From an uncultured Bacteroidales bacterium (GTDB lineage: Bacteria; Bacteroidota; Bacteroidia; Bacteroidales; DTU049): a DNA stretch of 64,000 nt. This document shows positions 3,096 through 34,057 of the stretch, in pieces (within the stretch, counting starts at the first letter, position 1; each line of letters begins with the position of its first letter). The stretch lies in the NCBI GenBank assembly GCA_964428185.1, contig CAYRXH010000003.1, forward strand, positions 14,577 to 78,576, in the 5' to 3' direction. The notes below the pieces were generated by a model. The model ran no database searches, was not told the DNA's origin, and saw only the letters and a program-made list of their open reading frames with translations. The translations under genes were made by a program, and so were the position numbers.

Positions 3096-3168
3096 TGTCC
3101 GATGGTGTAACTGGCAACACGTCTGACTCTGAATCAGAAGAGTCTAGGTTCGACCCCTAGTCGGACAA
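3096..3168 (+). tRNA. tRNA-Gln, anticodon CTG
   Basis: Acceptor stem TGTCCGA/TCGGACA, anticodon arm TCTGA-CT CTG AA-TCAGA, T-arm CTAGG-TTCGACC-CCTAG. CCA is not encoded. Confidence 0.95.
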
Positions 3169-3170
3169 CA

Positions 3171-7603: not shown

Positions 7604-7605
7604 GC

Positions 7606-8778
7606 TTATCTGATATTTTTAAATGCTTTCTGTATGACCTTTGAAATATTGGAAAAGATTTCATCTTCATCTCCCACACCATCAAATGCCTGGAGCATGT
7701 TCCGTTTTTCATAAAAATCGAGCACCGGTTTGGTAAATTTCTCATACACCTCAAGTCTGTGAATGATAATATCCATATCCATATCATACACTCTTGCTGT
7801 GTCTGTTTTTGCCCTGGCAGTCAGACGTTTTATGGATTGCAATGTGGGAGATTTTATTTCATAAACACAGGAAACCCTTGATCCCATTTTCTGAAGCAGC
7901 CCTTCGAGGATATATGCCTGTACCAATGTTCCGGGAAACCCTTTAAAAATAAATCCTTTGGCGCTATGTGATTCCTTGATTTTCCTTTCGATCAGTTTGA
8001 TGGCAATTTCGTCGGGCACAGGATCTCCTTTTTCGAGGAATGGTTGGGCTAGACAACCCATTTCAGTACCATTGGCAATTTCATTCCTAATCATTTCACC
8101 TGTTGACACATAGACAAGATTGAATTCCTTTGCCAGTTTTTTTGCCTGTGTTCCCTTACCTGCTCCCGGAGGACCTACAAGAATAATGTTCAGCCAGATA
8201 TTTTCAAGTTGCTTTTCAATTATAGCATCAACACCTGAAAAGATTTCATCCACTGTTCCGGTGCCGTCAACACTGAAAAATTTATTCTGAGCTTTATAAA
8301 AATCTGCCACAGGGACGGTTTTGTTTTCATACTCATCAAGTCTGTGGTTAATGATTTCCATGCTTCTGTCGTCCGATCGGTTTTCCTTCTCGGCTCGGGC
8401 AACCATTCTTGAAATCAGTTCTTCCCGAGGAACATCAAGGCTGATCATACAAGTCAGACTCATCCCCATTTTCAGCAATAAACCCTCAAGGATATATGCC
8501 TGAACCACAGTTCTGGGAAAACCATCAAAAAGAAAACCGTTTGTATCAGTACTCATTTTAATTTTTTCTTCGATGATCTGAACGATGATCTCATCCGACA
8601 CCAGCTTCCCCTGATCAATGGCTTCCTTTGCAATAAGCCCTAGCTTGGTTTGTTGCTTGATTTCTTCTCTCAGCATATCACCTGTCGAAATATAAGTGAG
8701 TTTATATTTTTCAAGCAGCAGTTTGGACTGCGTTCCTTTGCCCGCTCCGGGCGCTCCGAATAATGCAATATTTATCAT
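7606..8778 (-). CDS. Tandem two-domain adenylate kinase
   Basis: Domain 1 has GAPGAGKGTQ, TGDMLR and DGFPR. Domain 2 has GPPGAGKGTQ, TGEMIR and KGFPG. Start moved to ATG 8778. Confidence 0.88.
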   Translation of the reverse strand: MINIALFGAPGAGKGTQSKLLLEKYKLTYISTGDMLREEIKQQTKLGLIAKEAIDQGKLVSDEIIVQIIEEKIKMSTDTNGFLFDGFPRTVVQAYILEGLLLKMGMSLTCMISLDVPREELISRMVARAEKENRSDDRSMEIINHRLDEYENKTVPVADFYKAQNKFFSVDGTGTVDEIFSGVDAIIEKQLENIWLNIILVGPPGAGKGTQAKKLAKEFNLVYVSTGEMIRNEIANGTEMGCLAQPFLEKGDPVPDEIAIKLIERKIKESHSAKGFIFKGFPGTLVQAYILEGLLQKMGSRVSCVYEIKSPTLQSIKRLTARAKTDTARVYDMDMDIIIHRLEVYEKFTKPVLDFYEKRNMLQAFDGVGDEDEIFSNISKVIQKAFKNIR

Positions 8779-8791
8779 GTCGCTTTTCCTT

Positions 8792-9343
8792 TTACTCTTC
8801 AATAACTGAATATATATCTTTCAGATTTCTCCCGAATCCATTATAGTCGAGTCCATAGCCCACAACAAAATCGTTGGGAATGGAAAATCCGATATAATCA
8901 ACAGGATAAGTCTTCTGAAATTTCCCTTTTTTGAACAATAAGGTTGCTATTTTCACAGATGCTGCTCCCCTGTTCTGAACAACATTTAAGATGTGTTCCA
9001 TGGTAATCCCTGTATCTATTATGTCTTCAACAAGAATGACATGTCTGTTGCTCAGGTTTTCTTCTATCCCCAGAACCTCACTGATCTTTTCGGTGGAGTT
9101 CATCCCATGGTATGAGGAAACTCTTAAAAACCCAATCTCAGATTCTATATTGATTTTTTTTAGCAGATCAGATGCAAACATAAAAGCCCCATTGAGTATA
9201 ATAAGGAATAATGGTTTTTTGTCATTGTATTCAACATTGATCTGCTGAGCAATCAATTGCAGAGAATTCTGAATCTCGTCATGGGTGATATAGTGTTTGA
9301 AGTTGCGGTCAGATACTTTTACGATTGTATTTTGATCACTCAT
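8792..9343 (-). CDS. hpt: Hypoxanthine phosphoribosyltransferase
   Basis: ILNGAFMF, VEDIIDTGIT and FVVGYGLDY motifs; start moved to ATG 9343. Confidence 0.95.
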   Translation of the reverse strand: MSDQNTIVKVSDRNFKHYITHDEIQNSLQLIAQQINVEYNDKKPLFLIILNGAFMFASDLLKKINIESEIGFLRVSSYHGMNSTEKISEVLGIEENLSNRHVILVEDIIDTGITMEHILNVVQNRGAASVKIATLLFKKGKFQKTYPVDYIGFSIPNDFVVGYGLDYNGFGRNLKDIYSVIEE

Positions 9344-12685: not shown

Positions 12686-14440
12686 ATGAAAAAAATCATT
12701 TGCCTGCTGATTGCTGTTCTTTCAGCTTATCAGCTTTTTGCACAGGCACCCCAGTCGTTTAAATATCAGGCTGCCCTCAGGGATGACAATGGCGTTTCAT
12801 TGGTCAATACAGCCGTAACAGTCAGAATCAGCATCCATCAGACAAATTCGGGTGGCACTGTCGTTTATCAGGAAACATTCTCTGTCACAACCAATGATTA
12901 CGGTCTGATTTTTCTGAATATAGGCTCCGGCACTGTTATTTCGGGAACTTTTGCATCAATTGACTGGTCTGGTGATCAGTATTTTATTAAGACAGAGGTA
13001 GACAGCGGCAGCGGATATGCTGACCTTGGAACCACCCAGTTACTTTCAGTGCCTTATGCCCTGCATTCAGCCAGCGCTGTTGAAACTGATCCTTCTTTCA
13101 GTGCCAGTGCTGCAGCAGGTATAACTTCAACAGACATTACGAACTGGAACAGCATGACAGGGTCCCAGTGGATAGACAACAGTCCGTCCATATATTTTAC
13201 CGGCGGAAATGTGGGAATCGGCACCAACGCCCCCACGGGATTGCTTCATACATACGGTAACGGAATTGGTGAAGGCAATGTATTATTTCAGGGAATATAT
13301 AAGGGAACACCTGGTGATCCGCCTGCCAGCGGTGGAGGAACACGCATGATGTGGTATCCTGACAAAGCAGCCTTCAGGGTGGGGAGAGTTTCCTCCACTC
13401 AATGGGATAAAGACAGTATCGGCAATTATTCATTCGCAACAGGTGAAAATGTCAAAGCCAAAGGACATAATTCAATGGCCTGGGGACAGAACACAAGTGC
13501 CACAGGAATGAGATCCACTGCCTGGGGCAGCTCAACATCAGCCACTGGTGAAGGAGCCACAGCCTTCGGGCTTTCAACAGTTGCTGCAGGAAATTTTTCA
13601 ATAGCTGTTGGAGAAGGGAATTCATCTCCCACTTATACAGAAGTTGTTGTGGGAAGATTTGCTACCACTTATACAGCTTCAGGAACAGGAGCTACCAATT
13701 GGGCAGCCACCGACAGATTGTTTACAGTTGGTAACGGCACAGCCACAACATCAAGAAGCAACGCCATGACAATATTTAAAAACGGAAATGTGGGGATTGG
13801 AATAGACAATCCAGGCAACCATCGCTTATATCTTCAGTCTGCCGGCGCAGGATCCTCGGCCGCTACCCTCAATATTGAAAACACTGCTTCCAATGGTATG
13901 GCACTCAACGTTTCTACTTCAACCAGTGACGGAAGTGTACTCATTACACAAAACGGCTCCGGATATGCTCTGAGGTGTGATTATCTCACTCCACTTCGTA
14001 CAGTTTTTGTTGTGGCAGGTGATAATGTGGGAATTGGTCTTGCCAATCCGTCAAACAGGCTTGTTGTCTATAATGGCACCACAACAGGTCAATATACAAC
14101 TTCAGGATGGACTCACTCATCCGACAGGAGGCTGAAAAAAAACATCATTGATATGGAGCCGGCACTTGAAAAACTTCTGCAACTGACTCCCAAAAGGTAC
14201 GACTACATCACAGAAGAAAGCAATAGCAGTGCTCACATCGGCCTTATAGCTCAAGAAGTAGAGCTCCTGTTTCCCGAATTTGTAAATACAGATGCTAACG
14301 GAATGAAGTCCATTGCGTATGGCGAAATGGTTCCTGTGTTGATTCAGTCAATCAAAGAACAACAGCAACAGATTGAAATGCTGATGCAGATGGTCAAAGA
14401 ACAACAGCAAAGAATCGAGACTCTGGAATCAGGGAAGTAA
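12686..14440 (+). CDS. Secreted tail-fibre-like protein with 14-residue beta-roll repeats and a C-terminal Peptidase_S74 intramolecular chaperone
   Basis: Signal peptide; GNVGIG repeats; YadA-head-like repeats ([56 protein letters not shown]); [10 protein letters not shown] cleavage motif; [13 protein letters not shown]; terminal coiled coil. Confidence 0.85.
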
Positions 14441-19393: not shown

Positions 19394-19451
19394 TATCCAA
19401 TAGCATCAGGAGAAGTTTTTTGTTTTTTTACTACTTTTGAAAAAAAACAGC

Positions 19452-19865
19452 ATGATTTTCATTACCCGACGAGAGCAGTTTAATGCAGCTCACCGCTTGT
19501 TCAGGCTTAATTTTACTGATGAGGAAAACCTGCAGGTATTTGGTAAATGTTCAAATCCCAACTGGCACGGCCATAATTATACTCTTTTTGTAACTTTGAA
19601 GGGGGAGGTCAATCCTGAGACCGGATTTCTGATGAATCTGAAGGAGTTGAGTTCAATCATCAGGACACATATTATTGAGCCTCTTGATCACAAGAACATG
19701 AATGTAGAAGTGCCGTTTATGGAAGGAGTGATGCCCTCAACCGAAAATCTTGCCATTGCTGTCTGGAAAGAACTTGAAAAGCATCTTGTTGGCCAAGGGG
19801 CAGTGTTGCATTGTGTCAGAATTGAAGAAACAGAAAATAACTTTGTAGAATATTACGGACAATAA
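19452..19865 (+). CDS. queD: 6-carboxytetrahydropterin / 6-pyruvoyl-tetrahydropterin synthase
   Basis: FNAAHRL, GKC.NPNWHGHNY, LDHKNMN, STENLA and ETENN motifs. Confidence 0.9.
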   Translation: MIFITRREQFNAAHRLFRLNFTDEENLQVFGKCSNPNWHGHNYTLFVTLKGEVNPETGFLMNLKELSSIIRTHIIEPLDHKNMNVEVPFMEGVMPSTENLAIAVWKELEKHLVGQGAVLHCVRIEETENNFVEYYGQ

Positions 19866-19876
19866 ACTCATAAGCT

Positions 19877-20512
19877 ATGATGAAAAACCAGAATCTTATC
19901 GATCATTCGGTTGATGGATACACCAAAATTGACAATTATGACGATGCCGCAATAGAGCAAATGAAAGTTCATTATGAGCAGATATTGAAATTTATTGGTG
20001 AAGACCCTCAGCGAGAAGGATTGCTGAAAACTCCTGAGCGTGTTGCCAAAGCCCTGCAGTTTCTGACTCACGGGTATAACGCAGATCCTGAACAAATTCT
20101 CAGGTCTGCAATGTTTGCTGAAGAATATCGCGAAATGGTTATTGTGAAAGACATAGAGCTGTATTCAATGTGTGAACATCATATGCTGCCATTTTTTGGC
20201 AAGGCTCATGTGGCCTATATTCCAAATGGTTATATTGTTGGTCTCAGTAAAATTCCACGTGTGGTTGATGCCTATGCACGCAGGCTTCAGGTACAAGAAC
20301 GATTGACTTCGCAGATAAAGGACTGTATTCAAAACACGATTAAACCTTTGGGAGTAGCGGTTGTAATTGAAGCTCATCATTTGTGTATGATGATGAGAGG
20401 TATTCAGAAGCAAAATTCTGTTACTACAACATCCGATTTTACGGGTGCTTTCAGAAAAGAAGAGACACGTGCCGAATTTCTCCAGCTTATTGGAAACTCT
20501 CGTCTTCACTGA
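19877..20512 (+). CDS. folE: GTP cyclohydrolase I
   Basis: [35 protein letters not shown] and HLCMMMRG motifs. Confidence 0.97.
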
Positions 20513-21160: not shown

Positions 21161-21817
21161 TTGCTGATGTTTTATATCTGCTCTGTTGTAATTTATTATG
21201 CGATCAGCTTTTACCAGTCACTTCAGGAAAAACTGGTACGTGAAATGGAACTGAAGTCTTTGGTTCGTGAAGATCATCTCAATGAACTGAGATCCCAGCT
21301 GCACCCGCACTTTTTATTTAACCGCCTGAACTCCATGAATTCGCTGACAATATCAAATTCTTCAGCAGCAGGAGAGATGATCATCAAACTCTCTGAATTT
21401 CTTAGATATTCGCTGAGCAGGAAAGGACGCAGCATGACAACACTTGACAAGAAACTGTATCATATCAGGTTGTATCTTGATACTGAAAAGCTTTGTTTTG
21501 GCAACAGACTTGATTTTGTTTGTGATACAAATGAAGCAGCCGATTTATGACCATTGCCACTGATGCTGCTGCAACCTCTTATAGAAAATGCTGTGAAACA
21601 CGGTGTATATAATACCGGCGAAACAGTTATAATTCAATTAAAAGCCTCAGTAATAGATGAAATTCTCTGTGTCGAAATTGAGAACAACTTTGATCTCGAT
21701 GCCATACCTGAAAAGGGGACAGGAACTGGCTTGAGCAATGTCCAGGAGCGTCTGAAACTTGTGTATGGCAGAAATAAGATTTTTGAGTTCAGAAACGAAC
21801 AATACAAAGAATCATAA
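21161..21817 (+). pseudogene. LytS/YehU-type histidine kinase remnant
   Basis: LRSQLHPHFLFN and LLQPLIENAVKHG...GTGTGLSNVQERL, with an in-frame TGA at 21548-21550 between them. The N-terminal membrane part and the C-terminus are truncated. Confidence 0.85.
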
Positions 21818-21821
21818 ATAA

Positions 21822-22588
21822 AAACAAAGCCATCATTATTGAAGATGAAATGCCGATAGCCGAGCTGAATATTGCCTATTTGAAAGACCATCCGAATGTG
21901 GAAATTATCGCTATTTGAAATGATAGATTCAGCGTACTAAAAGCAATTCAGGAACATAAACCTGATCTTATTTTTCTTGATGTTCGAATGCCCAAACCGA
22001 CAGGTTTTGAGTTGCTTGAAATGCTTGAAAGTCCGCCCATCGTGATCTTCACAACTGCCTTTGATGAATAAGCCATACGGACTTTTGAAATGAACGCAGT
22101 GGACTATCTGATAAAACCTTATTCTCGCCAACGTTTTGCTTTAGCACTGAAAAAAGCATCCGAAAAAACAATTACCCTCCGAAAAGGTGAACATACCACT
22201 ACACACAATCATACTGCTGACTTTCTGCAGCCCGAACAAACCATTGAAAGAATTGTTGTCAAAAAAAAACAACCGCATTGTGGTTGTTCGTGTTTCTTCA
22301 ATAATCCATATCGGAGCCTGGGATGATTATGTTTTTACCTATGCAGATGGAAAACAACACATCAAACAGAAAACCATGACATATTATGAAGAACATCTGA
22401 ATCCGTGCAAGTTTATCAGAAAACAATGCTCATGGGTTGTTAATGTTGATTGTATTGAACAACTCAGTCTGTACGAAAAGGAAACGTATATGGTCAGGCT
22501 GAAATCAGGAGAAGAACTTCGTGTCAGCAGAGCCGGGTATAAAAGACCGAAACCTTTTTTTAAACCAGAACTACTTAACTGTATCTGA
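21822..22588 (+). pseudogene. LytTR-family response regulator remnant
   Basis: KAIIIEDE...[11 protein letters not shown]...[10 protein letters not shown]...NAVDYLIKP, with in-frame stops TGA 21916-21918 and TAA 22069-22071, then a frameshift before the LytTR domain (...ELRVSRAGYK). Confidence 0.88.
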
Positions 22589-22820: not shown

Positions 22821-23382
22821 CACTACTGTACGACTAAAAAATATAAAGAAGGGGGGCATACTTCCTTGAAGTTTCACCCCATGTTGTAAATTTGCTTTGA
22901 AAAAAATCAACAACATGAACAAAAACACGGAAATAAAATTAGTCGGACAGCCGAACTTTCGGATTGACCTTTAAAGAAGTGTTATTGATTGATTCCACCA
23001 CCATTCGTATATTCAGCGATATGTTAAAAGGCGTGGGACACAATGCGAAAAATGACGGCAAAAACAAAGGCGGCTTAAAAGTTAACATGCTCATAGCGCA
23101 ACTACTGCTGAGTATGATTCAAAAAAACTGCGCAAGCGAAAAAGGCATTTTCAGTGGTGGCGGCATTGGTGAGAATACATTTAATCAGCTTGCTAGATGT
23201 ATTTGAATTGCTCAGAAGCACAAGCAGGATTTATGTGAAAAACTATAAGCCTCCACCAAATCAGTTACAGATGTCATTGAGTTTTTAGGGGGGGGTCACT
23301 TTTTGAATTGAAATATTCGTGCTTGACTACTAATAACTTACAGGCAAAATAGTCAAAAATTAATTTTAGTTGGATAGTAGTG
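22821..23382 (+). mobile_element. Internally deleted IS4-family element (562 bp) with both terminal inverted repeats
   Basis: Left IR CACTACTGTACGACTAAAA (22821) versus reverse-complemented right IR CACTACTATCCAACTAAAA (ends 23382), 16/19 identical. Transposase pieces: MNKNTEIKLVGQP (ATG 22915), LLIDSTTIRIFSDMLKGVG...GGLKVNML, and LIAQLLL...(frameshift)KKAFSVVAALVRIHLISLLDV...* (TAG 23286-23288). No clear target-site duplication. Confidence 0.8.
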
Positions 23383-23451: not shown

Positions 23452-23581
23452 ACACATAGGCGGTCATAAAACATAGCGGTTTCAGTGGGTTTGGAAACTA
23501 TCGTCCCGCATCAAGGTTTGTCACGCGAGATACAGACGCAGCTTCGCAATCCGCTATATTTCATACCGCCAACCGTTATGC
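23452..23581 (+). repeat. attC-like imperfect palindrome
   Basis: Left arm GGCGGT-C-ATAAAACATAGCGG (from 23459) pairs with right arm CCGCTATATTTCATACCGCC (23551-23570), leaving one unpaired C. It ends in GTTATGC (23575-23581); the left core is degenerate (CACATA). Confidence 0.5.
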
Positions 23582-23698
23582 ACAAGCGAAAAAAATACAA
23601 TGATACAGCAAATTGACAATCAAAATTAAATATTAAACTTGGAATGAAAAACCAAACTGACAGACAAAAGACCCGACACTCATTGCCTACACTTTTAG

Positions 23699-23706
23699 TA
23701 TCTTTG
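23699..23706 (+). promoter_or_regulatory. -7 promoter element upstream of the brx operon
   Basis: TATCTTTG (TAnnTTTG) 20 nt before ATG 23727. Confidence 0.5.
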
Positions 23707-23726
23707 ACCATTTTAATTTAACTTAT

Positions 23727-26300
23727 ATGTTCAGAGTAGTCTGGGACAAAGAAATTAATGGAGTTTTGCTTACAACAAACGGAAACGGTGATGCCTTAAA
23801 TGTTTCACCGCGACCGGTTTTTCATGAAGAATTAAACCTGCTTGGTTTTGATAAAAACTGGAATTGGAAATATCCAGAATCAAAAGCCCCTTTACTTTGG
23901 GCACTAGATAGACGATATTTTTACAAAGGTGAATTGGTTGCTGAAGTAAAAGGTGGAAATATATTTGACGAACCAATAATTGAAATCACCGATGTAGGGA
24001 AAGACTTAAAACTTAAGCCTATAAATATTCATAAGGTAGTTGAAAAAAATCAAAAATTACTTTTTCTACTTGAACAGGAAGCCATTGAATTCATTGAACA
24101 AACCTATCGCACTTATAGTTTTAAGAAAATAAGGAGCAAAGCTAAAGCAAATGAAGAAGTTGACTGGGCTTTACTGGCTGAAATGCAAGAAAAGAATACA
24201 AAAATTAAACATGCAGTAGTTAGGCAAGACTGCGATAGTTTTGATATAATACCTCTTGACTTGGCCAAAGAAAACAACAAAACTGTTTACCTGAACACAA
24301 AGATTGACCAGTTTATTGCTTCCTTTAGTGGCGGAAAAGATTCTCAGGTTATGCTTGATCTTGTAAGCCGCGTGATACCTCCTGATGATTTTATAGTGAT
24401 TTATTCAGATACTGGTATGGAAATTCCTCCTTCAATTGAAATCTATCAACTGACAAAACAGATTTACACCAAACAGTATCCTGAACTGAAATTTCATTTA
24501 TCAAAAAACCACCAAAATATTATTGATAATTGGGGCGAGTTTGGTGCACCAAGTCGTCTTAATAGATGGTGTTGCACTGTTGCTAAAACAGCCCCACTTT
24601 ACAAATTATTAAAAGATTTAAAAGGGAATGGGAAGCAACCTAATGTTCTTGTTTTTGAAGGTGTTAGAGCGGAAGAAAGTAATGCTAGGGGAAAATATGC
24701 TCGAATCGGTAAAGGAGTAAAGCATAACAATGTAATAAATGCAAGACCAATTTTTGATTGGAGTGCTACTGAAATATATTTGTATCTTTTTAGTAGAAAT
24801 TTGCCATTTAATTCTGGCTATAGAAATGGTTTATCACGGGTTGGTTGTACAATATGTCCATTTTCTTCAGAGTGGTCCGAACATATAGTAAAAAAACTGT
24901 ATCCAAAGAGCATTGATAAATTCATTGATATTATATTTAATCAAACGGACACCATAGGGATTGAGAGTAAAGAGAAGAAGATTAACTATATAAAAGAAGG
25001 TAATTGGAAAAAAAGAGCAGGTGGCAAATTAAATGATTCAAATACCTCAAGAATAGATTTTATTCAGTTTAAACCTGAATTTAAGGTAATTCTCACCAAT
25101 CCTAAAGAAAAAATTACTGAATGGTTAAAAGTTTTAGGCAAGATTAATTTTAATTACACAAACGATATTATTTCTGGAGAAATACTAATTGATAAAATAC
25201 CTGTTATCGTAAATATTACTACCATCCTACATGATGAAAATATCAAACAAATTATTGTATTTAAAAATATAAGTGAGAATCCATTATTAGTTAGCAAAAT
25301 TAAAAAAGTATTATACAAAACAACTTATTGTACTCATTGTGAAGCATGTGAAATAGAATGTCCTAAAGGAGCTCTTAAAGTGGAACCAAAAGTTACTATT
25401 GATTCCAATAAATGTATTCATTGTGGTAGGTGTTCTGAAATAAATGAAAAGGGCTGTTTATTGGCAAAAGCAATTAATATCTCCGAAGGAAACATAAAAA
25501 ACTCATCAAATATGAAATCATCTGGTATTGACAAATATTCTACATTTGGTCTACGTGAAAAATGGCTTAGCCAGTATTTCCAGAATATTGAGAATTATTT
25601 TGAGACTGGGAATAATGATTTAGGAACAAAAATGATTCCCGCTTTAATACATTGGCTTCGAGATGCCGATTTACTAAATCGAACAGATAAAAACGCAAGT
25701 GAAACGGCAATCTTTTTAAAAGAAGTTTATCAACACAAACCAAACCTAACTTGGGAAATTATTTGGATAAATCTTTCCTATAATTCAACAATTACTAATT
25801 GGTATGTAGGCAATGTTCTATATAATAGATCATACTCAAAAAGCGAATTGTTAGCAATGCTTCAAAATGATTATCCAAATTATGGTGCTGGGACGCTCAA
25901 AAATCCATTAGGCGCATTACTCAATACATTTGATGAAAGTTCCTTGGGTAGTGTATTAGAAATTAGTCAATTAAAGAAAAAAGGAAATGCTATTGATACA
26001 ATTATTAAAAAACCTTACGAAACTATTGATTCAATAACTGTAGCTTATTCACTTTACCGTTACGCCAACAGCAAAAACCGCTATAATTTAACAGTTTCCG
26101 AATTATATGCTCCTGAACAAAAGCAAGGCATTTACAAGGAATTTGGAGTATCAAAAGAACGATTCCAAAACATATTGAGAACTTTACAAGAAAATAAAAA
26201 CGGAATTGTAAAAGTGGATTTAGTGATGGGTCTCGACAATATCTCATTACGCGAAGATTTAACCTATACCGAAGTGCTTAAACTTTTACTTGAAAAATAG
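23727..26300 (+). CDS. brxP: BrxP-like fusion: PAPS-reductase/DndC-SspD-like domain + 2x[4Fe-4S] ferredoxin + DUF4007 (SspB/BrxA-like winged helix)
   Basis: SFSGGKDS PP-loop (24321-24344), RWCC (24564-24575), EGVRAEES, RVGCTICP (to 24860), CTHCEACEIECP...CIHCGRC-x7-C (25329-25457), and a C-terminal KYSTFGLREKWL...ALIHWLRDADLL domain. Confidence 0.82.
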   Translation: MFRVVWDKEINGVLLTTNGNGDALNVSPRPVFHEELNLLGFDKNWNWKYPESKAPLLWALDRRYFYKGELVAEVKGGNIFDEPIIEITDVGKDLKLKPINIHKVVEKNQKLLFLLEQEAIEFIEQTYRTYSFKKIRSKAKANEEVDWALLAEMQEKNTKIKHAVVRQDCDSFDIIPLDLAKENNKTVYLNTKIDQFIASFSGGKDSQVMLDLVSRVIPPDDFIVIYSDTGMEIPPSIEIYQLTKQIYTKQYPELKFHLSKNHQNIIDNWGEFGAPSRLNRWCCTVAKTAPLYKLLKDLKGNGKQPNVLVFEGVRAEESNARGKYARIGKGVKHNNVINARPIFDWSATEIYLYLFSRNLPFNSGYRNGLSRVGCTICPFSSEWSEHIVKKLYPKSIDKFIDIIFNQTDTIGIESKEKKINYIKEGNWKKRAGGKLNDSNTSRIDFIQFKPEFKVILTNPKEKITEWLKVLGKINFNYTNDIISGEILIDKIPVIVNITTILHDENIKQIIVFKNISENPLLVSKIKKVLYKTTYCTHCEACEIECPKGALKVEPKVTIDSNKCIHCGRCSEINEKGCLLAKAINISEGNIKNSSNMKSSGIDKYSTFGLREKWLSQYFQNIENYFETGNNDLGTKMIPALIHWLRDADLLNRTDKNASETAIFLKEVYQHKPNLTWEIIWINLSYNSTITNWYVGNVLYNRSYSKSELLAMLQNDYPNYGAGTLKNPLGALLNTFDESSLGSVLEISQLKKKGNAIDTIIKKPYETIDSITVAYSLYRYANSKNRYNLTVSELYAPEQKQGIYKEFGVSKERFQNILRTLQENKNGIVKVDLVMGLDNISLREDLTYTEVLKLLLEK

Positions 26301-26307
26301 TGGCATC

Positions 26308-29300
26308 ATGAAATATTCAGAAATCATTGGATTACAGGAGTATTTTCACCCTGTGTTTAATATAGAGAACGAAACCATTAATTATTGGAAACAGTTTATT
26401 CCAAACGACCAATTTTATGAGGTTTTACGGAAAACACTTTCTGCGATAGATACAAGTGAGCCAAGTTTAAGAAAATCCATCTGGATTCAGGGAACTTTTG
26501 GCACAGGGAAAAGTCATGCAGCTTCTGTGATTAAGCATTTGCTCTTTGATGATTATGCACAGGTTGAAAATTATGTAGAAGTGAATATTGATGATTCCAG
26601 TTTAAAGTCAAAAATAAAGAACTATCGAGGTAAAAGTAAATTAATGCCTATTGTATTAAAAGGATTAGGAAGTATATCCAATAGCAGAACATTTGCTTTA
26701 CAAATTGAAAAAGCTGTAAGAACTTCACCTGGTTTTAAGGATTTAGGCATTGTAGCAACCAGCGACTTTGACAGATTGATTGAAAAGGTAAATAGCCCTT
26801 TAATAGATTGGGATTCACTTATAAATAAGCATGATGATCTGAGTATCTATGTTTCAACCAAAACCGACATTTTAAAGAAACTAAATGCTTATGATATTGA
26901 TTTCTTTCATGTAATTGAAGGCACTCTGAATAAAGAGGGTGTTCACTTCTCCCATTCAGATATTACGAAGTGGCTTGTGGAAGTTAATAATGAGGTTATA
27001 TCTCAAAAGAAAGCTGATGGGATTATCATCATTTGGGATGAGTTTACTTCTGTAATGGATTCTATTAACTCAGGAATAATTAACCAGCTACAAAATATTG
27101 CTGAATTAAGTGAGAAAAACAACATCTTTTTGTACTTAATCAGTCATAGAACGCCCCACCAACATTCTATACCCAAAGAAGATTTATCACGAATGAATGA
27201 CAGGTTTCATATTATTCAGTATCGCATGGAACCTATTACGACCTATCATATTATTGCAGCAACCATTAAAAAAATTAATATTGAAGAATGGCTCCGTCAC
27301 CAAGCAGAAATATTTGAGGGTTCAACACAATGGGATGATTTAATTAATTTGCTAACCAATAACCACAGTGCATCTGCAAAATCAAAAATAAAAGACCTTT
27401 TCCCCATTCATCCCTATTCAGCATATTTATCCACCTTTATTGCCAGAAATTTAGGTTCTACCAATAGAAGTATTTTTGGGTTCTTGTATGATAAAGAATT
27501 TGGCTTTCTGAATTATTTAGACAAGGAGTTAAACGGAGAACGCTTACTTACAGCTGATTATTTGTGGGATTTCTTTGCCAATGCATTTGAAAATGATCAG
27601 GAAGCGAGGTTTAATCAGGTGCTTGATAAATATCGTTTAAATATTCAAAGAGTTCAGGAGCATGGAGAAAATTGCACAAAGGTATTTAAGGGAATTTTGC
27701 TTCTGAACGTATTATTTAAAGTAATTGAAATAACTGGCGAAGAAGGAAGTCCGGTTACTCCTTCAACCGAAAACATTACTTCACTTTTTACTGGTTCTGG
27801 GTTTGAAAAAGAAATTCCAGAAATACTTTTCTTTATTGACGAAAAAGGAATCATTACAAAGACCCCAGGTGGCGACTATTTAATTGAGTTTTCATCGTTA
27901 CCAATAAGAGAAATTGAGCAGGCAAAGGAAAGCGTTAGGAATCAGTTTAAAGATATAATCAATGTGCTAAAGTATGCTCAAGTCGATAAGGATTTGGAGA
28001 AAAGTATTTTCAAGGACAATATTTACAGAGAATCTGAAATTACTTTGTTTTCAACTAATATTGACAATGAACATATTTTAAGGAATCGTTTAAACAAAGC
28101 TTTTCAGAAACCTTACAGTCTGAAATGTGCAGTTTTTTTAGCAAATGGAGAGTATGAACATTTAACGACCATTCACAAAATTAAAGAACTAGCACAGGAT
28201 GAGGATTTTCAGGATATAGTTTTTATTATCGTTGAAGAACCATTTTCTGAAAGAAATTACGAAAAGTTTATTGATTATATTGCCAGGAAGCAGGTAAGCG
28301 ACAATCATAGTTATGACGAACAGTCGGCTAATTACGAAAACTACGCAAAAGAGCAAGTAAAAGAGTGGTTTTCTAGAATTAAAAACAGATATATGCAGAT
28401 CATTTTTAGGGATAAAGATGAAAAACTTCTTGCCAATAAAATTGGAAATGTGATCAATCGTTCCTACAGTCCGGTAATTTTTTCAAAAGGAATCGATAAC
28501 ATTTCTGACTTATTCAGGAACGCAAACGTTTGGAAATTTCAAACAGCAATAAAGGCAGCGGAGATTTTTATTTTTGCTGACGACCGTACTGAACTTGAAG
28601 AAAAAACATCGGGCGGCCCCAATGTCTATCTTAAATATTTAGTTAAAGACAAGGAAGGCGAATATATCATTGCTGATAATTTACTATTAAAGCCAGATAG
28701 CGACCCTAATCACACTTTAAATATTATTCAAGGAGAAATAGACTCAAAATTTTCTAAACTTAAACAGAGATCACTTTTCAATATTGGTGAAGAACTAAAA
28801 TTCCTAACAGAGGCACCTTTTGGACTTTATACAAATATGCCCAATATGGCACTTATAGGTTATGTTCTTAGAAAATATATTGGAGAACTTTATGTAGCTG
28901 ATGTGGGAAGACCTATTGAAAAGGATGAAATGCGTGATTTGATCGGCTATATGTTTAGTTTCTGGCAGGACGGCAGAAATCAAAATAAATTGAATGTACG
29001 TTTTGGTTCCAAAGAAGAAAGGGAACTAAAAGAGATATTACTTGACCTATTTGATTTAAAAGATTTTAATAGTATTACTGATACTCGCTGGGCAATTGTA
29101 AATTACGTAAAAACAAACGCGAAATACCCTATCTGGGCATTAAAATATTGTACTGAAGGGAAGAACATTACTGTTGCTATTGATGAGTTGCTAAAGCTTA
29201 TTTATAATTCCACAAATGATATAGATGTTAAGTTAATTTCTGGAGTTTTAGGAAAAACAAAGGACTATCGTTATGAACTAAAATTAGCACTTAAGCATGA

Positions 29301-29697
29301 AAATTTTAAAGCAGGGTTTCTAACATTTTTGCAAAATGTAGATGATGGTATTTTAATCACAAATGAAAACTTTAGCGAAGTTATGGATCATCTGAAATCT
29401 AGCATGCAGGAAGAAATAGGTTTATGGAAGGAAGACAATGTTAAGTTAAAAGTTTATCAATGGCACACGCACAAAAATCAACCTCCAACTAATCCAACAC
29501 TACCAACTAATCCCGACACATCTCAAAATCCTGATACTCCCACACATACTCCCACACCTGAAAGAGAAAAAATCATTTTCAAAGTCAGGAATTTTAATCT
29601 TGGTGAACAGGAACTTAAAAATAGAATTGTGAAAATGATTGAAGAAAATCAACACTTTTCTCAACTCTTAAGTTTGATTGATAAATATTTAAATTAG
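26308..29697 (+). CDS. brxC: BrxC/PglY (SspC-like) large P-loop ATPase
   Basis: Walker A WIQGTFGTGKSH, Walker B IIIWDEF, and DLFPIHP motif; operon position between brxP and pglZ. Start placed at ATG 26308. Confidence 0.78.
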   Translation: MKYSEIIGLQEYFHPVFNIENETINYWKQFIPNDQFYEVLRKTLSAIDTSEPSLRKSIWIQGTFGTGKSHAASVIKHLLFDDYAQVENYVEVNIDDSSLKSKIKNYRGKSKLMPIVLKGLGSISNSRTFALQIEKAVRTSPGFKDLGIVATSDFDRLIEKVNSPLIDWDSLINKHDDLSIYVSTKTDILKKLNAYDIDFFHVIEGTLNKEGVHFSHSDITKWLVEVNNEVISQKKADGIIIIWDEFTSVMDSINSGIINQLQNIAELSEKNNIFLYLISHRTPHQHSIPKEDLSRMNDRFHIIQYRMEPITTYHIIAATIKKINIEEWLRHQAEIFEGSTQWDDLINLLTNNHSASAKSKIKDLFPIHPYSAYLSTFIARNLGSTNRSIFGFLYDKEFGFLNYLDKELNGERLLTADYLWDFFANAFENDQEARFNQVLDKYRLNIQRVQEHGENCTKVFKGILLLNVLFKVIEITGEEGSPVTPSTENITSLFTGSGFEKEIPEILFFIDEKGIITKTPGGDYLIEFSSLPIREIEQAKESVRNQFKDIINVLKYAQVDKDLEKSIFKDNIYRESEITLFSTNIDNEHILRNRLNKAFQKPYSLKCAVFLANGEYEHLTTIHKIKELAQDEDFQDIVFIIVEEPFSERNYEKFIDYIARKQVSDNHSYDEQSANYENYAKEQVKEWFSRIKNRYMQIIFRDKDEKLLANKIGNVINRSYSPVIFSKGIDNISDLFRNANVWKFQTAIKAAEIFIFADDRTELEEKTSGGPNVYLKYLVKDKEGEYIIADNLLLKPDSDPNHTLNIIQGEIDSKFSKLKQRSLFNIGEELKFLTEAPFGLYTNMPNMALIGYVLRKYIGELYVADVGRPIEKDEMRDLIGYMFSFWQDGRNQNKLNVRFGSKEERELKEILLDLFDLKDFNSITDTRWAIVNYVKTNAKYPIWALKYCTEGKNITVAIDELLKLIYNSTNDIDVKLISGVLGKTKDYRYELKLALKHENFKAGFLTFLQNVDDGILITNENFSEVMDHLKSSMQEEIGLWKEDNVKLKVYQWHTHKNQPPTNPTLPTNPDTSQNPDTPTHTPTPEREKIIFKVRNFNLGEQELKNRIVKMIEENQHFSQLLSLIDKYLN
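29485..29557 (+). repeat. Short direct repeats encoding a Pro/Thr linker in BrxC
   Basis: CCAACTAATCC at 29485 and 29503; tandem ATACTCCCACAC x2 at 29534-29557. Confidence 0.8.
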
Positions 29698-29705
29698 AGG
29701 CAACC

Positions 29706-32051
29706 ATGAAATTGTCAGAAAAAATAAAAGAATTTGATAGTATCGAAGGATTGATTTCACAAATTAATTCTGACAAGTTTACAAATGAAATACTATCGAG
29801 ACGATATCCTGTCAGATTAATTTTTTTACAAAAATTTGAAACTTTCAGGTTGTTAATTGAAAGGTTATCTTCAATCGGGATTGAAAACTATCATCTTGAA
29901 AAAGATTTACCTCATCCAGATGGGTGGATTACAAAAGATACATTAATCAACATTGTTAAAAACTTATCAAAGGATACAGCGGTTGTGCCTTTTTCAGAAA
30001 TTGTAAGATTTTATTCAAAAGAGGACTTTAAAAATTTCTTCAATCAGTTGCTATTGATTGAAAATGTTGAATTAACAAGACGGATTTATTTACCGTTAAT
30101 AGGAGTTGAAGAAAGATTTGAGAAAGATTTTTTTCAGGATTTTACCAGAAAAGATGAATCTGCTCCCTATTGGAAAATATCAAGAGAAACTCCGAATTCG
30201 ATAAAAGTATTTTTGACTTCACAAACACTCACTAAAAAGATTGGCAATTATGAAACTATTGTCAATACTGAAGAATGGCTCAAGTTTTGGAAGAAAAAAA
30301 GCCCCTGTGATGTTATTTGCAATTCGAAACCCCTAAACTTATTCTACGAGAACACTTTACCTGACACTATTTTTACTATTGAAAATGTTGATAACCCGAA
30401 AATTTTGATTGAAAAAATCTTCAATATTGAAGTTCCGATTCCTTTTGATAATTCTGATATATTATTTTGGGAAAAATTTCTCAGCCTTTTAAACAAAGAC
30501 TTTACAACCTTTAAGGCTTTTGTAAAAAGTTATTTCAAGGTTACTTCTTTAACAATTTTCACGTTACTGGATCATTGGCTAAAGTCAAACGATTTATTTG
30601 AGAAATGGCTTTTAAAACACTTTGTACTGACTCAAAGTTGTTTAGAAACAAAATACATCTTTAAAGTTTTTGAGTCACTATCAGATTATTCTGATCACAC
30701 TCTGCTTAAAAGCCTCTACCAAAGAATATTTAGTCTGGAAATCAATGAGGAATATATTAATGATCGGTTAGAGTTGATTCAGCAGCTCTCAAGGCTTAAA
30801 CCAATTAATCTTTGTGATGAAACGCTTGTCGAATTAAATTTTAATATTCAGACGATTGCCGATTATAGACAAGCTTTATTGCTTACTACAGGTATGTTCC
30901 AATTCGAGAAAGTCTATATTCTTGAATTATTTGCAAAAGGGGAAATTGATAATTTAGGTTTATTGTCCCAACGATTTCCTGAAATTTTATATTACAATTC
31001 TGAATGCTCATTTGACAACATTAAAAGTGAAAATGAATGGGTTTTAGAATATTTAAGTGAGTATAAGAAATCAAAATTAAACGACTCTACAACCAACCGT
31101 TTAAGTGAAATATTGCTTTTAAAGAATGCCAATGACCAATCATTTTACAATTGGTATCATAGTTTTGAATCAATTCACAGCATTTTCCATTCAAATAAAG
31201 TGGATAAAGTAATATGGATTGATGCCATAGGGATTGAATGGGTCTCTTTTATTGAGAGTTATGTTATCAATCAAAAGCATGATTTAAATGTAATTAAAAA
31301 AAGCATTGGAGTTGCCAATCTACCAACAAGCACCGACCAAAATAAATTTCCTAACGTAAAGTATATTCAAGATTTTGATAGTCATATCCACTCAACACAA
31401 TATTCCTTTCCGAACTCCATCATTACGCAATTTGATGAAATAAAAAGAATAATTGATACTTACATTATTCTTGATTCTGAACAGACAATTGCAATAGTTT
31501 CTGATCATGGATTAACCGCTTTGTCTAGACTTGCAGCATCTAAAAAATATGGCAAAGACGATAGCCATGAAGGGCGTTTTATTGAAGTTAAGGATAAAGA
31601 CCATATTCCTGATCCTGATTACATAATTCATAAATCAGAAATTGACCAAAAAAACTATTTAATTGCATTAAAGCATAGTTCACTTGGTAAAAAACCAATA
31701 AGAGAAGTTCATGGAGGAGTAACTCCTGAAGAAGTGCTAGTTCCATTTATTGTAATTTCTAACAAGAAAGAAAGTGCAGAAATTGATTATTCCATTATAA
31801 TTGAGAAGACTGAAATACCAAAAAAAGAACCTCTTATTTCAGTTAAAATAACTCCAAAACCATCTGCAGCACATATAGATATTAAGGAAAAAATAGTGAA
31901 ACTTAATTTTAATGAAACAACTCAAAAGTGGGAAGCAAACCTTGATAAATCTTTATCAGGCAAAATTACAATTAAAGTAAAAACAGGCAAATGTGAAAAA
32001 GCATTCACAATTAACATAATCTCAGGTATAATAGAGGAGGACTTATTTTGA
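29706..32051 (+). CDS. pglZ: PglZ (alkaline-phosphatase-superfamily) BREX core protein
   Basis: Metal-binding motifs VIWIDAIGIEW, ANLPTST, IVSDHG and HGGVTPEEVLVP in the C-terminal third. Confidence 0.88.
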   Translation: MKLSEKIKEFDSIEGLISQINSDKFTNEILSRRYPVRLIFLQKFETFRLLIERLSSIGIENYHLEKDLPHPDGWITKDTLINIVKNLSKDTAVVPFSEIVRFYSKEDFKNFFNQLLLIENVELTRRIYLPLIGVEERFEKDFFQDFTRKDESAPYWKISRETPNSIKVFLTSQTLTKKIGNYETIVNTEEWLKFWKKKSPCDVICNSKPLNLFYENTLPDTIFTIENVDNPKILIEKIFNIEVPIPFDNSDILFWEKFLSLLNKDFTTFKAFVKSYFKVTSLTIFTLLDHWLKSNDLFEKWLLKHFVLTQSCLETKYIFKVFESLSDYSDHTLLKSLYQRIFSLEINEEYINDRLELIQQLSRLKPINLCDETLVELNFNIQTIADYRQALLLTTGMFQFEKVYILELFAKGEIDNLGLLSQRFPEILYYNSECSFDNIKSENEWVLEYLSEYKKSKLNDSTTNRLSEILLLKNANDQSFYNWYHSFESIHSIFHSNKVDKVIWIDAIGIEWVSFIESYVINQKHDLNVIKKSIGVANLPTSTDQNKFPNVKYIQDFDSHIHSTQYSFPNSIITQFDEIKRIIDTYIILDSEQTIAIVSDHGLTALSRLAASKKYGKDDSHEGRFIEVKDKDHIPDPDYIIHKSEIDQKNYLIALKHSSLGKKPIREVHGGVTPEEVLVPFIVISNKKESAEIDYSIIIEKTEIPKKEPLISVKITPKPSAAHIDIKEKIVKLNFNETTQKWEANLDKSLSGKITIKVKTGKCEKAFTINIISGIIEEDLF

Positions 32052-33469
32052 ACACACTTGACGAAAAAATAAAACAAGCATTTCCTGATGAATCAGTTAT
32101 TAAGATTCCTCAGAATTATAGCATTTTTGCTGGTAAAAATTTGCCTTCATTCATTAAGGACTTCTTAATAAAACGCTATACTGACAGCTATGGCAATCTA
32201 GACCGAAATGGAGTTCTAAAATTCTTGGAAGACCATATTCCCAGCAAGGATAACGATCTCAAGAATCGTTTACGAACCCACAGGGAAGAAGTGACTGTAT
32301 TAACTAGATTTATTGTTGAAACAGATTTAAAAAATGATAAATTACTTTTTTCTATTCCTGATTTGGGCATAAAATCAAGTGAAGGTCGAATACCTGACCA
32401 TGTTGCAAAAAAAAATAAAGAGTTAAAAGATGGTGAACTTTGGGGAGTTGTCACCTTAGTATATCAACCACCTGCAGATAAAGAGAAGGGTTCTGTTGAA
32501 CTCGTTAATTATAAAGCATTCAAACCCTATAAAGTAGATTTGGAATATTTCAGAGCAGCAAGAAAAGAATTTAGCACAGCTGAGTGGATGGACCTTTTGA
32601 TACGTTCAATGGAGTACAATCCTGATGGTTTTGAATCATTGTCACAAAAACTGATGTTTTTGAGCAGAATTCTGATATTTATTGAACCTCGGCTAAATAT
32701 GATTGAATTAGCACCGAAGGGAACGGGAAAATCATACATTTTTGGTAATCTCAGTAAATATGGTTGGATGATAAGTGGTGGGAAAGTAACTAGGGCAAAG
32801 TTATTTTATGATATGACTAAAAAATCCATGGGTGCAATTACATTATACGATTTTGTTACAATGGATGAAATTCAAACAATTACTTTTTCTGACTCAGCAG
32901 AAATTCAGGCTGCACTTAAAAGCTACCTTGAATTCGGCTATACCACTGTTGCTAATGTAAAATTAGTCTCTCAGGCTGGCTTGATAATAATGGGAAACAT
33001 TTCTCTTTCAAAAGATAAAAAACCTATTCGACTAAAATATTTTTCAGAATTACCTGAAACGTTTAAAGAATCAGCCCTTTTGGATCGATTTCATGGTTTT
33101 ATCGAAGGATGGAAACTTCCAAGAATTAGTGAGGATTTAAAAATTAATGGATGGACGCTAAATGTTGAATATTTTTCAGAAATAATGCATGAACTTCGTG
33201 ATAAACCAATTTATTCTGCAATTGTTAACGACCTATTGGAAGTTCCTTCAAAAGCCGACACCAGAGATACTACAGCAGTTAAAAGAATAGCTACTGCATA
33301 TTTGAAACTGCTTTTCCCAAATGTAAATGACACTACTGAAATCAACAAAGAAGACTTTAAAAACTATTGTTTAATACCAGCAATAGAAAAAAGAAAAATC
33401 ATTAGAAAACAAATTCACCTAATTGATGAAGAATTTTCAGATGAAATGCCAGACATAAAAATAAAGTGA
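32048..33469 (+). CDS. brxL: BrxL-like MCM-type AAA+ protein without the C-terminal Lon protease domain
   Basis: EWMDLLIRSMEYNP, NMIELAPKGTGKSY, VTMDE and SALLDRFHGFIEGW; 473 aa; TTG start overlaps the pglZ stop (TTGA). Confidence 0.88.
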   Translation: MNTLDEKIKQAFPDESVIKIPQNYSIFAGKNLPSFIKDFLIKRYTDSYGNLDRNGVLKFLEDHIPSKDNDLKNRLRTHREEVTVLTRFIVETDLKNDKLLFSIPDLGIKSSEGRIPDHVAKKNKELKDGELWGVVTLVYQPPADKEKGSVELVNYKAFKPYKVDLEYFRAARKEFSTAEWMDLLIRSMEYNPDGFESLSQKLMFLSRILIFIEPRLNMIELAPKGTGKSYIFGNLSKYGWMISGGKVTRAKLFYDMTKKSMGAITLYDFVTMDEIQTITFSDSAEIQAALKSYLEFGYTTVANVKLVSQAGLIIMGNISLSKDKKPIRLKYFSELPETFKESALLDRFHGFIEGWKLPRISEDLKINGWTLNVEYFSEIMHELRDKPIYSAIVNDLLEVPSKADTRDTTAVKRIATAYLKLLFPNVNDTTEINKEDFKNYCLIPAIEKRKIIRKQIHLIDEEFSDEMPDIKIK

Positions 33470-33484
33470 CTTGTCCTGAAATAG

Positions 33485-33506
33485 ATTTACACAAATTAGT
33501 GTAAAT
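33485..33506. other. AT-rich inverted repeat just after brxL
   Basis: ATTTACAC-AAATTA-GTGTAAAT, an 8-bp stem. Could be a terminator or an operator. Confidence 0.35.
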
Positions 33507-34057
33507 TTATCTCCGCACAAAAAATGAAATAGACAAGAAAAATAAAACATCAGCAAAGAGGCAATCGTAACCGAGTATCGAAACTGGGAATATAAAATAT
33601 ATAGTGACAATTCCGGAGCAAATGATGCCACCTTTTTTGCGATGAATTTCACACTAATTTCGAGGAACTTTTTTTGCAAAATTGTTCTGAACATTAACTC
33701 TGACAGTGTGTTATACAACAAATATATCCTGCTTAAGCGGAGCGGTGTAAGTGTTGGTTTTTCATGCAACAAAAATATTGTTCCTTTGCTTAGTGGACTA
33801 CTTTCTATCGGAATGTCAGTTTTTTCTTACACATTAAAGTGGAATACTTTGCTCCGTAATTATCACTGTTTATCTGGCAGTTAGTAATATCCAGAAAAAA
33901 TGGACTAAACCAATCAGAGATTGGGGTATGATTTTAAATCAATTTTTGATTAAGTTTGAAAACAGATGCAAATTCAATTAGTTACCTGTTTACACAAAAA
34001 TTTTCACACCCTCGGGGGTAATTTCAGTGCTTGCGCAAAATAAAATGAAAGGGCAGT

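Follow-up and report, generated by a model that had tools for sequence, protein, structure and literature searches.

The stretch analyzed here (the window) comprises 64 kb of DNA from an uncultured Bacteroidales bacterium and contains, at 23727-33469, a block of four genes that we identified as a bacteriophage exclusion (BREX) type 4 operon. An earlier note, made from the sequence alone, had proposed this layout for the block together with a marking of self DNA by phosphorothioate (PT). The genes observed in the block were as follows.

23727-26300, + strand, brxP, ATG start, 857 aa (from the listing of open reading frames, ORFs, and reading of the junctions)
26308-29697, + strand, brxC, ATG start, 1129 aa (Walker motifs, PADLOC)
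29706-32051, + strand, pglZ, ATG start, 781 aa, BREX-4-type member of the alkaline-phosphatase superfamily
32048-33469, + strand, brxL, TTG start, 473 aa, short form

Direct reading of the junctions gave intergenic spacings of 7 bp (brxP-brxC) and 8 bp (brxC-pglZ) and a 4-bp overlap of pglZ and brxL, so that the earlier description of four co-oriented, coupled genes was exact. For brxC the ORF lister offered an in-frame upstream alternative, a TTG at 26290, and the ATG was also chosen by an independent gene call on contig L001. A strong Shine-Dalgarno-like motif, GAGGAGGA, was observed at 32035-32050, 6 nt 5' of the brxL TTG. Shine-Dalgarno pairing is rare in Bacteroidetes, and the motif may reflect translational coupling or a foreign origin.

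All four proteins matched BREX-4 models over nearly their full length, with no frameshift and no stop codon, and the PAPS-reductase-type fusion, large ATPase, PglZ and BrxL named in the earlier note were borne out by Pfam, PADLOC and NCBIfam models, the PglZ, BrxL, PAPS_reduct and DUF4007 profiles each finding a match in the respective protein. BrxP matched the PADLOC BrxP model at full length (900 bits), with weaker matches to the SspD, DndC and SspB models, and its Pfam domains were PAPS_reduct at residues 197-378 (E=2e-31), Fer4 at 528-571 and DUF4007 at 605-852. The architecture is an N-terminal domain, a PAPS-reductase/PP-loop domain, an alpha+beta domain, a 2x[4Fe-4S] ferredoxin domain and DUF4007, resembling a fusion of SspD and SspB. 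The PP-loop SGGKDS (residues 201-206) is intact, and cysteines are kept at 282/283, at 374/377, within CxxCxxCxxxC (535-545) and at C563, C566, C569 and C577. Only generic PAPS-reductase and ferredoxin matches were found for BrxP among PDB sequences. Proteins of this type are common, with 2267 observed at E<=1e-20 and full-length relatives of 49-93% identity in Bacteroidales and beyond.

BrxC matched the PADLOC BrxC model with 844 bits over residues 7-1132 of a 1135-aa query and the SspC models more weakly; it carries a Walker A motif (GTFGTGKS, 62-69) and a Walker B motif (IIIIWDE, 239-245), and scans gave no Pfam or NCBIfam match and no match among PDB sequences. PglZ matched NCBIfam NF033445 BREX_PglZ_4 ("BREX-4 system phosphatase PglZ") with 518 bits (cutoff 140) and the PADLOC PglZ model with 354 bits, and contains the motifs IWIDAIG (D506), PTST (541-543), SDHG (599-602) and HGG (669-671); it had no match among PDB sequences. 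BrxL matched TIGR02688 with 472 bits (cutoff 329) as well as Pfam BrxL_N and BrxL_ATPase, with Walker A PKGTGKS at 223-229 and Walker B at D273/E274. Its alignment to the Acinetobacter BrxL structure 8EMC (679 aa) covered only residues 11-458 of that structure (E=8e-53), and we therefore assigned it to the short form, which is without the Lon-protease-like C-terminal domain.

The block has a GC content of 32.0%, against 39.6% in the left and 38.8% in the right flank, and the GC content of third codon positions was likewise lower (23-28% in the operon genes, 32-42% in six flanking genes), as expected from the earlier remark that it is AT-richer than its surroundings. The ratio of nonsynonymous to synonymous substitution rates (dN/dS) was 0.04-0.14 for each of the four genes against two relatives, and the genes have therefore evolved under purifying selection. 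Pfam scans of ~55 ORFs within the 64-kb window found no DNA methyltransferase domain, in line with the claim that PglX/BrxX is missing. BREX type 4 is reportedly defined as brxP-brxC-pglZ-brxL in the classification made by Goldfarb and colleagues in 2015, and the gene identities, their order and the lack of a methyltransferase all fit this definition. We therefore regard the operon, from its sequence, as a bona fide BREX type 4 system that is apparently functional.

The PT chemistry of such operons has been described in homologues. PT dinucleotides were found by liquid chromatography-tandem mass spectrometry in Bacteroidales with brxPCZL (Yuan et al., bioRxiv 2024, Nat Commun 2026, PMC12914056), including the BREX type 4 systems of Bacteroides salyersiae and Butyricimonas faecalis, and deletion of brxC in B. 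salyersiae abolished PT (PMC12914056). In the same study brxP and brxC reconstituted PT in B. thetaiotaomicron, with mcrA co-expressed and the host SufS present, while brxZ and brxL were dispensable for PT; the mapped motifs were NCTC of the CpsCTC type and GApsAG/GApsCG, and no brxP deletion mutant of B. salyersiae could be recovered (PMC12914056). A comparison of 457 type-4 taxa found the same BrxP architecture, with DUF4007 called BrxA-like, and reported that PglZ was kept in 100% and BrxL in 96% of the taxa and a cysteine desulfurase in only 56% (PMC12839542). The housekeeping SufS or IscS can replace a dedicated desulfurase (PMC12839542, PMC12914056). The Pfam scan of the window yielded no cysteine desulfurase, its sole Aminotran_5 match lying inside GcvP.

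The window operon shares with the PT-proven Bacteroidales systems the same four genes in the same order, a BrxP that combines PAPS-reductase and DUF4007, a short BrxL, the lack of a methyltransferase, the host order and the minimal "brxCLPZ" gene set. It differs in having no McrA, BrxR-type regulator, cysteine desulfurase or zinc-finger gene, all of which are present in some type-4 loci (PMC12839542). The other relatives are the SspABCD-SspE and DndABCDE-FGH systems, to which the operon is linked by the BrxP matches to SspD, DndC and SspB models, by the BrxC matches to SspC models and, by analogy, by a PP-loop sulfurtransferase chemistry that would depend on a cysteine desulfurase. Unlike in these systems, a single polypeptide, the window BrxP, unites the functions of SspD and SspB and includes an additional ferredoxin module, the locus is without DndA/SspA, and its effector side consists of PglZ and BrxL instead of SspE, SspFGH or DndFGH; the operon proteins matched only BREX, SspBCD and DndC models of PADLOC, and the flanking ORFs had no Pfam domains of the SspE, SspFGH or DndFGH kind. 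By analogy with the published homologues, the PT interpretation of this operon appears sound and agrees with the backbone-sulfur marking that the earlier note had suggested (Yuan et al.). Since this type of BrxP is common and the PT chemistry is published, the operon as such represents known biology; the window copy adds one natural minimal brxPCZL variant, which is useful for finding the PT motif and how PglZ and BrxL read the sulfur mark.

In our assessment the genomic context of the operon matters more than the operon itself. Five relatives in reference genomes share 23683-33462 with the window and do not share its flanks, three of them at ~91% nucleotide identity. A horizontal origin of the block is indicated by this identity to loci with unrelated flanks and by its GC content of 32% against ~39%. 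In all relatives the non-coding element upstream of brxP is strongly conserved, even where BrxP is only 67% identical. A 27-mer of this element was searched in metagenomes and found in at least 120 contigs (loci L002-L127, plus L130-L131); no copy of the core 27-mer was found in viral contigs, and no Rfam family matches the conserved element. Among the matches listed, an ORF starts 15-130 nt downstream of the 27-mer in almost all contigs, and the genes that follow the element belong to more than 80 unrelated families, mostly of defence. The 85 distinct first genes among these matches included ResIII (12), SNF2 (10), XRE-type HTH (9), N6_Mtase (8), PLD/NgoFVII (8), DUF1848 (5), HsdM_N (5) and Eco57I (4), and PADLOC added HKD+Snf2, type I methyltransferases and DrmD among the element-linked cargo. 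The genes upstream of the element were equally diverse. We accordingly rejected both a regulator or riboswitch specific to brxP and a conserved backbone upstream of the element. In one locus a cobalamin riboswitch (L081:1114-1293, 113 bits) follows the cassette leader, and the cargo is therefore not confined to defence genes.

The element is an inter-cassette unit of ~400 nt that consists of an attC-like stem-loop, a GTTNNNNNC box, an A-rich leader, a T-run and an invariant hairpin. In an alignment of 75 copies the first module is an imperfect stem-loop of 130-165 nt that reaches from a ...YAAC box to the GTTNNNNNC box, with stem arms that differ among copies yet stay complementary. The A-rich leader, of which there are at least three subfamilies, and the T-run form the second and third modules. 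The fourth, H1, is a near-invariant hairpin of ~75 nt whose inner stem covaries (TTGCCAAAGC/GCTTTGGCAA versus TTGGCAAAGC/GCTTTGCCAA). Large cassettes hold the ~75-nt hairpin twice in direct orientation, as H1 before the first gene and as H2 just after the last (L004:240-330 and L004:10112-10190; L130:19787-19868), and the outer stems of H1 and H2 show compensatory changes (ATTGCAC/GTGCAAT versus TTGCAAGC/GCTTGCAA). The short cassettes of L130 have neither hairpin. H1 and H2 could be insulators, terminators or protein-binding sites.

Several properties of these copies point to cassette recombination sites. The arms of a stem paired far better with each other than with the arms of other copies, with a mean of -22.3 kcal/mol for own and -13.1 kcal/mol for cross pairs in an alignment-free comparison (Wilcoxon p=2.5e-9, 60 distinct arms), and the own arm was better by >5 kcal/mol in 43 of 62 copies. 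Crossover in integrons takes place at G|TT, so that a cassette begins with bases that are the complement of the inverse core site with which it ends. We found this relation in 31 of the 69 loci with enough sequence, in which the 9-mer start box recurs exactly once as its exact reverse complement 3.4-14 kb downstream; the chance expectation is ~0.03 per locus, and control boxes from other subfamilies matched in 9 of 487 tests. Many of the matched closing boxes lie ~200 nt before a contig break, as a repeat would predict. The BREX-4 cassette of L004 begins at GTTATGCAC and ends, 247 nt after brxL, in the exact reverse complement of this box, GTGCATAAC, and a compensatorily changed hairpin copy, H2, stands directly 3' of brxL. 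In L130, whose BrxP is 89% identical to that of the window, all genes are co-oriented and the array contains a 10-kb BREX-4 cassette along with three short cassettes with exactly matched boxes (GTTAGTGGC...GCCACTAAC, GTTAGGTGG...CCACCTAAC and GTTAGTTGC...GCAACTAAC), the stop codons of the short cassettes falling within the closing ...TAAC box. Taken as sequence patterns, the boxes, stems and arrays look like signatures of integron cassettes.

Tyrosine recombinases were observed 98-145 nt upstream of the first box, co-oriented with it, in L075 and L108, behind a short hairpin and a GTATAAACAA|GTT-type junction; homologues were found in L113 and L020 and fragments in L099. These recombinases matched NCBIfam NF040815, "XerA/integron integrase", with 222-224 bits (cutoff 220). 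An IS91-family transposase comes after the recombinase in L020. Several Bacteroidota plasmids also carry the 3' half of the attC-like module, at 85-91% identity. In Myroides odoratimimus p63039 (L128, NZ_CP013691.1, 7001-7077) it lies between blaOXA and blaMYO-1/aadS and is flanked by repeated pairs of a tyrosine recombinase and an IS91 transposase, in Riemerella plasmids it lies between estT and erm(F) (L129, R. anatipestifer, NZ_CP072192.1, 7001-7080), and a Chondrinema plasmid carries this 3' half too. The same platform may thus carry antibiotic resistance cassettes in Flavobacteriia.

The features at the edges of the window operon, with remnants of such a cassette on the left side, were as follows.

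23459-23570, + strand, attC-like stem-loop remnant with 5' arm GGCGGTCATAAAACATAGCGG (23459-23479), a variable centre and 3' arm CCGCTATATTTCATACCGCC (23551-23570)
23575-23583, + strand, R'-type crossover box GTTATGCAC, the cassette start (G|TT), the same box in the same place as in L004 and L130
23584-23683, + strand, 5' part of a cassette leader of subfamily A (from the element alignments), ending at a ~132-nt deletion
23699-23706, + strand, Bacteroidetes-type -7 box TAtcTTTG, 21 nt before the brxP ATG (read from the sequence)
33463-34057, no strand, right edge, where homology to all relatives ends at 33462 (blastn) and AT-rich DNA with an IS256-type remnant is found instead

A profile of the 75 related element copies matched 23496-23697 of the window (E=6e-20). 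Pairing of the two window stem arms yields -21.0 kcal/mol, whereas arms taken from other copies yield -15.3, and the stem-loop folds at -20.4 kcal/mol on the bottom strand (z -2.4) and at -14.9 on the top strand; its left ...AAC box is degenerate (CACACAT). The ~132-nt deletion took the T-run and the core hairpin H1, with its junction at repeated TTGCC(G/A)AC motifs, and the ATG lies 152 nt from R' in the window but 284 nt from it in L004 and L130. The stretch TTTTAGTATCTTTGACC, which carries the -7 box, is near-invariant across all six aligned loci. The known promoter consensus of Bacteroidetes is TAnnTTTG, and TAtcTTTG is a candidate promoter element by this likeness. The right side lacks what intact cassettes have after brxL, namely the hairpin H2, the trailer and the R'' box; the closing box GTGCATAAC, complementary to R', occurs nowhere in the window, and no further copy of the conserved element was found in it. 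No window ORF contains a Phage_integrase domain, and the L075 and L108 recombinases had no tblastn match in the window. With the 3' site lost, no recombinase in the window and half of the leader left, the cassette would therefore be stranded and is probably immobile, its genes still being intact. The origin as a stranded cassette appears well supported by the statistics in the related loci and is partly visible in the window.

The closest described system, as far as its description allows a comparison, is rAID-1, the Bacteroidales recombinase-associated arrays (Ross et al. 2019, bioRxiv 10.1101/471110), whose cargo consists of small type VI secretion system immunity genes. The cassettes observed here differ in being 3-14 kb long and in holding whole restriction, BREX and helicase-nuclease systems. 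With classical integrons they share folded imperfect-palindrome sites between ...YAAC and GTT... boxes, complementary start and end boxes, stop codons inside the site, co-orientation and a cargo of defence or resistance genes. They differ from classical integrons in a recombinase that points the same way as the cassettes and scores below the curated cutoff for IntI, in sites of 130-165 nt, in cassettes of up to 14 kb and in the leader of ~200 nt and the flanking hairpins that the large cassettes bring with them. BREX has been described as "entirely absent from integrons", owing to its size (integrons as defence biobanks, Darracq et al. 2024), and for Bacteroidetes the integron surveys recorded only In0, in earlier work, and a single complete integron, that of Salinibacter. 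Judged from these features, the platform seen here would be an under-described variant at least.

We consider it highly probable that the window holds an intact BREX-4 operon that marks DNA by PT and that arrived as a now-stranded, integron-like cassette. The BREX-4 part of this explanation was recognized in the earlier note, but the nature of the block as a decayed cassette was overlooked. BrxP, as a PP-loop sulfurtransferase with a ferredoxin module and a BrxA/SspB-like DNA-binding domain, and BrxC, as an SspC-like ATPase, would replace a non-bridging phosphate oxygen by sulfur at a short motif of the host DNA, with the sulfur supplied by a housekeeping cysteine desulfurase, both of which steps were shown in homologues. 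Replication of unmarked incoming DNA would be stopped by PglZ and by BrxL, a short AAA+ protein, probably jointly with BrxC. The operon would have been gained horizontally as a ~10-kb cassette of an integron-like Bacteroidota platform, in which folded attC-like sites that carry G|TT...AAC crossover boxes would be the substrate of an Xer/IntI-like tyrosine recombinase; after loss of the downstream site, half of the leader would be left together with the upstream site and the R' box, surrounded by debris of insertion sequences (IS).

A number of observations weigh against this explanation. Sulfur must come from the genome outside the 64-kb window, and the support for PT, like that for a motif, derives by analogy from homologues; according to the literature, the Bacteroidales type-4 variants' activity against phages "awaits investigation". 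The deletion in the leader removed conserved upstream sequence and could alter expression of the operon, and the -33 TTTG of the relatives reads ATTG in the window. The recombinases reached only 211-214 bits with the TIGR02249 integron integrase model, below its cutoff of 265 and in two separate stretches, and a recombinase was observed in only 4-5 of ~125 loci among the matches listed, because the contigs are short. The ends of the L130 BREX cassette mismatch (GTTATGCAC versus GGCGGTAAC), GGCGGTAAC being the partner of the GTTACCGCC subfamily (L130:19782-20110); such chimeric ends perhaps arose by homologous exchange between conserved leaders or trailers. Excision and integration of the cassettes are themselves deduced from the DNA.

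We weighed three other explanations. That the operon fell silent or is decaying after it was stranded, and is perhaps no longer expressed or active, would fit the deletion directly upstream of the promoter region with its altered -33 element, the lost 3' site, the IS remnants on both sides (22964-23206 and ~33890-33980) and the fragmented LytS/LytTR genes that adjoin the block. Such copies do decay, as the brxC of L004, from a Bacteroidales metagenome-assembled genome, contains an in-frame stop (L004:2939-6328, 409 + 719 aa in one frame), a sign of decay or else an artefact of the assembly. The window genes, in contrast, are four full-length ORFs with no frameshift or stop and with intact catalytic motifs, their dN/dS of 0.04-0.14 is low, and the -7 box and a short leader are conserved, which makes a silent remnant improbable. 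Still further from our preferred explanation is a PT system that makes the modification without restriction, in an epigenetic or redox role, with PglZ and BrxL in the control of modification. In its favor, modification of the sites is partial in every PT system, PT is made without brxZ and brxL, and the literature leaves the anti-phage activity to be investigated; against it, the failure to obtain a brxP deletion in B. salyersiae is expected if unmarked self-DNA is attacked (PMC12914056), PglZ is retained in 100% and BrxL in 96% of type-4 taxa (PMC12839542), and the operon travels on a defence-rich cassette platform with restriction-type cargo. We regard this role as very improbable.

The third alternative concerns the flanking element, which might be an interspersed repeat of a regulatory kind or resembling a miniature inverted-repeat transposable element, that is a terminator and promoter module and no recombination site. 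Its right core lies 15-130 nt before start codons with a T-run ahead of it, and H1 and H2 are without an assigned role and without an Rfam match, as such a repeat would have it. A repeat of this kind does not predict exact complementarity of 9-nt boxes over 3-14 kb (31/69 versus 9/487), stop codons inside the ...TAAC box, long covarying stems or co-oriented Xer/IntI-like recombinases at the heads of arrays, and we judged it unlikely. We return to the integron-like cassette as the preferred origin of the block. On balance, and with some reserve, we favor a wider interpretation of the same data, namely a widespread integron-type platform of Bacteroidota, largely missed by standard tools and surveys, that moves giant multi-gene cassettes of 3-14 kb and of which the window operon is a domesticated, immobilized member. 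Its cargo would include complete BREX-4, type I and III restriction-modification and helicase-nuclease systems and, in Flavobacteriia plasmids, antibiotic resistance genes. Should the flanking signatures stem from true site-specific recombination, defence systems of several genes would move around Bacteroidota whole, in the manner of integron cassettes. This would contradict the current view that integrons exclude systems of the size of BREX, and it would suggest how defence genes, whose mobility is so far unexplained, and possibly also erm(F), blaOXA and metallo-beta-lactamase genes, come to be mobile in Bacteroidota.

The four-gene brxPCZL module was conserved in at least 10 independent contigs. 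The L005 copy is a mosaic relative to the window, with identities of 92% (BrxC), 87% (PglZ), 76% (BrxL) and 67% (BrxP). Comparison of L005:2559-5111 with window 23727-26300 showed that BrxP residues 400-750 are only 34-64% identical, against 84-100% at the termini. This region, which spans the alpha+beta, ferredoxin and DUF4007 domains, varies more among close relatives than any other part of BrxP and is a candidate specificity determinant, and the mosaic divergence suggests the exchange of a specificity module. More divergent brxPCZL operons, with BrxP 65-76% identical, were found in L132, L133, L134, L136 and L137. In L132 and L136 the vehicle is an integrative element that encodes a CTnDOT-type integrase along with an HTH_17 protein and a DUF3987 primase-like protein. 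BREX-4 loci therefore occur in differing vehicles, and the four-gene module is mobile by several routes. The small integrative elements of the divergent operons (L132, L133, L136, L137) hold an integrase, HTH_17, DUF3987 primase-like and DUF6965 genes, while L134 is a defence island with STAND, KAP-NTPase and SLFN-helicase genes. In these vehicles DUF3800 or DUF2779 genes come after the divergent brxPCZL operons.

The flanks of the block are ordinary Bacteroidales chromosome with housekeeping genes (GlnRS, Obg, Adk, AlaRS, GcvP, PurB, RecQ, RnpA) and with TonB-dependent receptors and a PorV-family protein, which are typical of Bacteroidota. The features nearest to the block were the following.

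21161-22588, LytS/LytTR-type two-component system, pseudogenised, adjoining the insertion on its left, with the His_kinase, HATPase_c and LytTR domains spread across several short ORFs
22964-23206, weak DDE_Tnp_1 fragment (E=0.07), left of the block
~33890-33980, + strand, C-terminal remnant of an IS256-family transposase, whose peptide QKKWTKPIRDWGMILNQFLIKFENR matches annotated IS256-family transposases (tblastn E=1e-5)

SRR11582163 was the only public sample with this sequence, and its contigs break at ~22893, 23460 and 33655. No tRNA lies beside the block, the only one in the window being tRNA-Gln at 3096-3169; the Rfam scan of the window gave tRNA only, and no direct or inverted repeats were found to bracket the block. 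Classical island borders were rejected on these grounds and on the lack of an integrase in the window. Genes for a QueD-like 6-pyruvoyl-tetrahydropterin synthase and GTP cyclohydrolase I were observed at 19437-20512, 3 kb upstream of the operon, and one for FolB at 855-1343. A 7-deazaguanine link through the folE and synthase genes was rejected, as they lie 3 kb away, have a host-like GC content and are grouped with folB and other housekeeping genes; we judged all three to belong to housekeeping folate or queuosine metabolism, outside any DNA-modification system. At 7016-8802 on the minus strand, a 398-aa ORF with two adenylate-kinase domains lies directly upstream of a separate gene for a 195-aa adenylate kinase, so that a tandem of three ADK domains results. 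A YadA-head repeat and a Peptidase_S74 (endosialidase chaperone) domain were observed in a 584-aa protein at 12686-14440, which resembles a tail fibre or adhesin and lies amid housekeeping genes.

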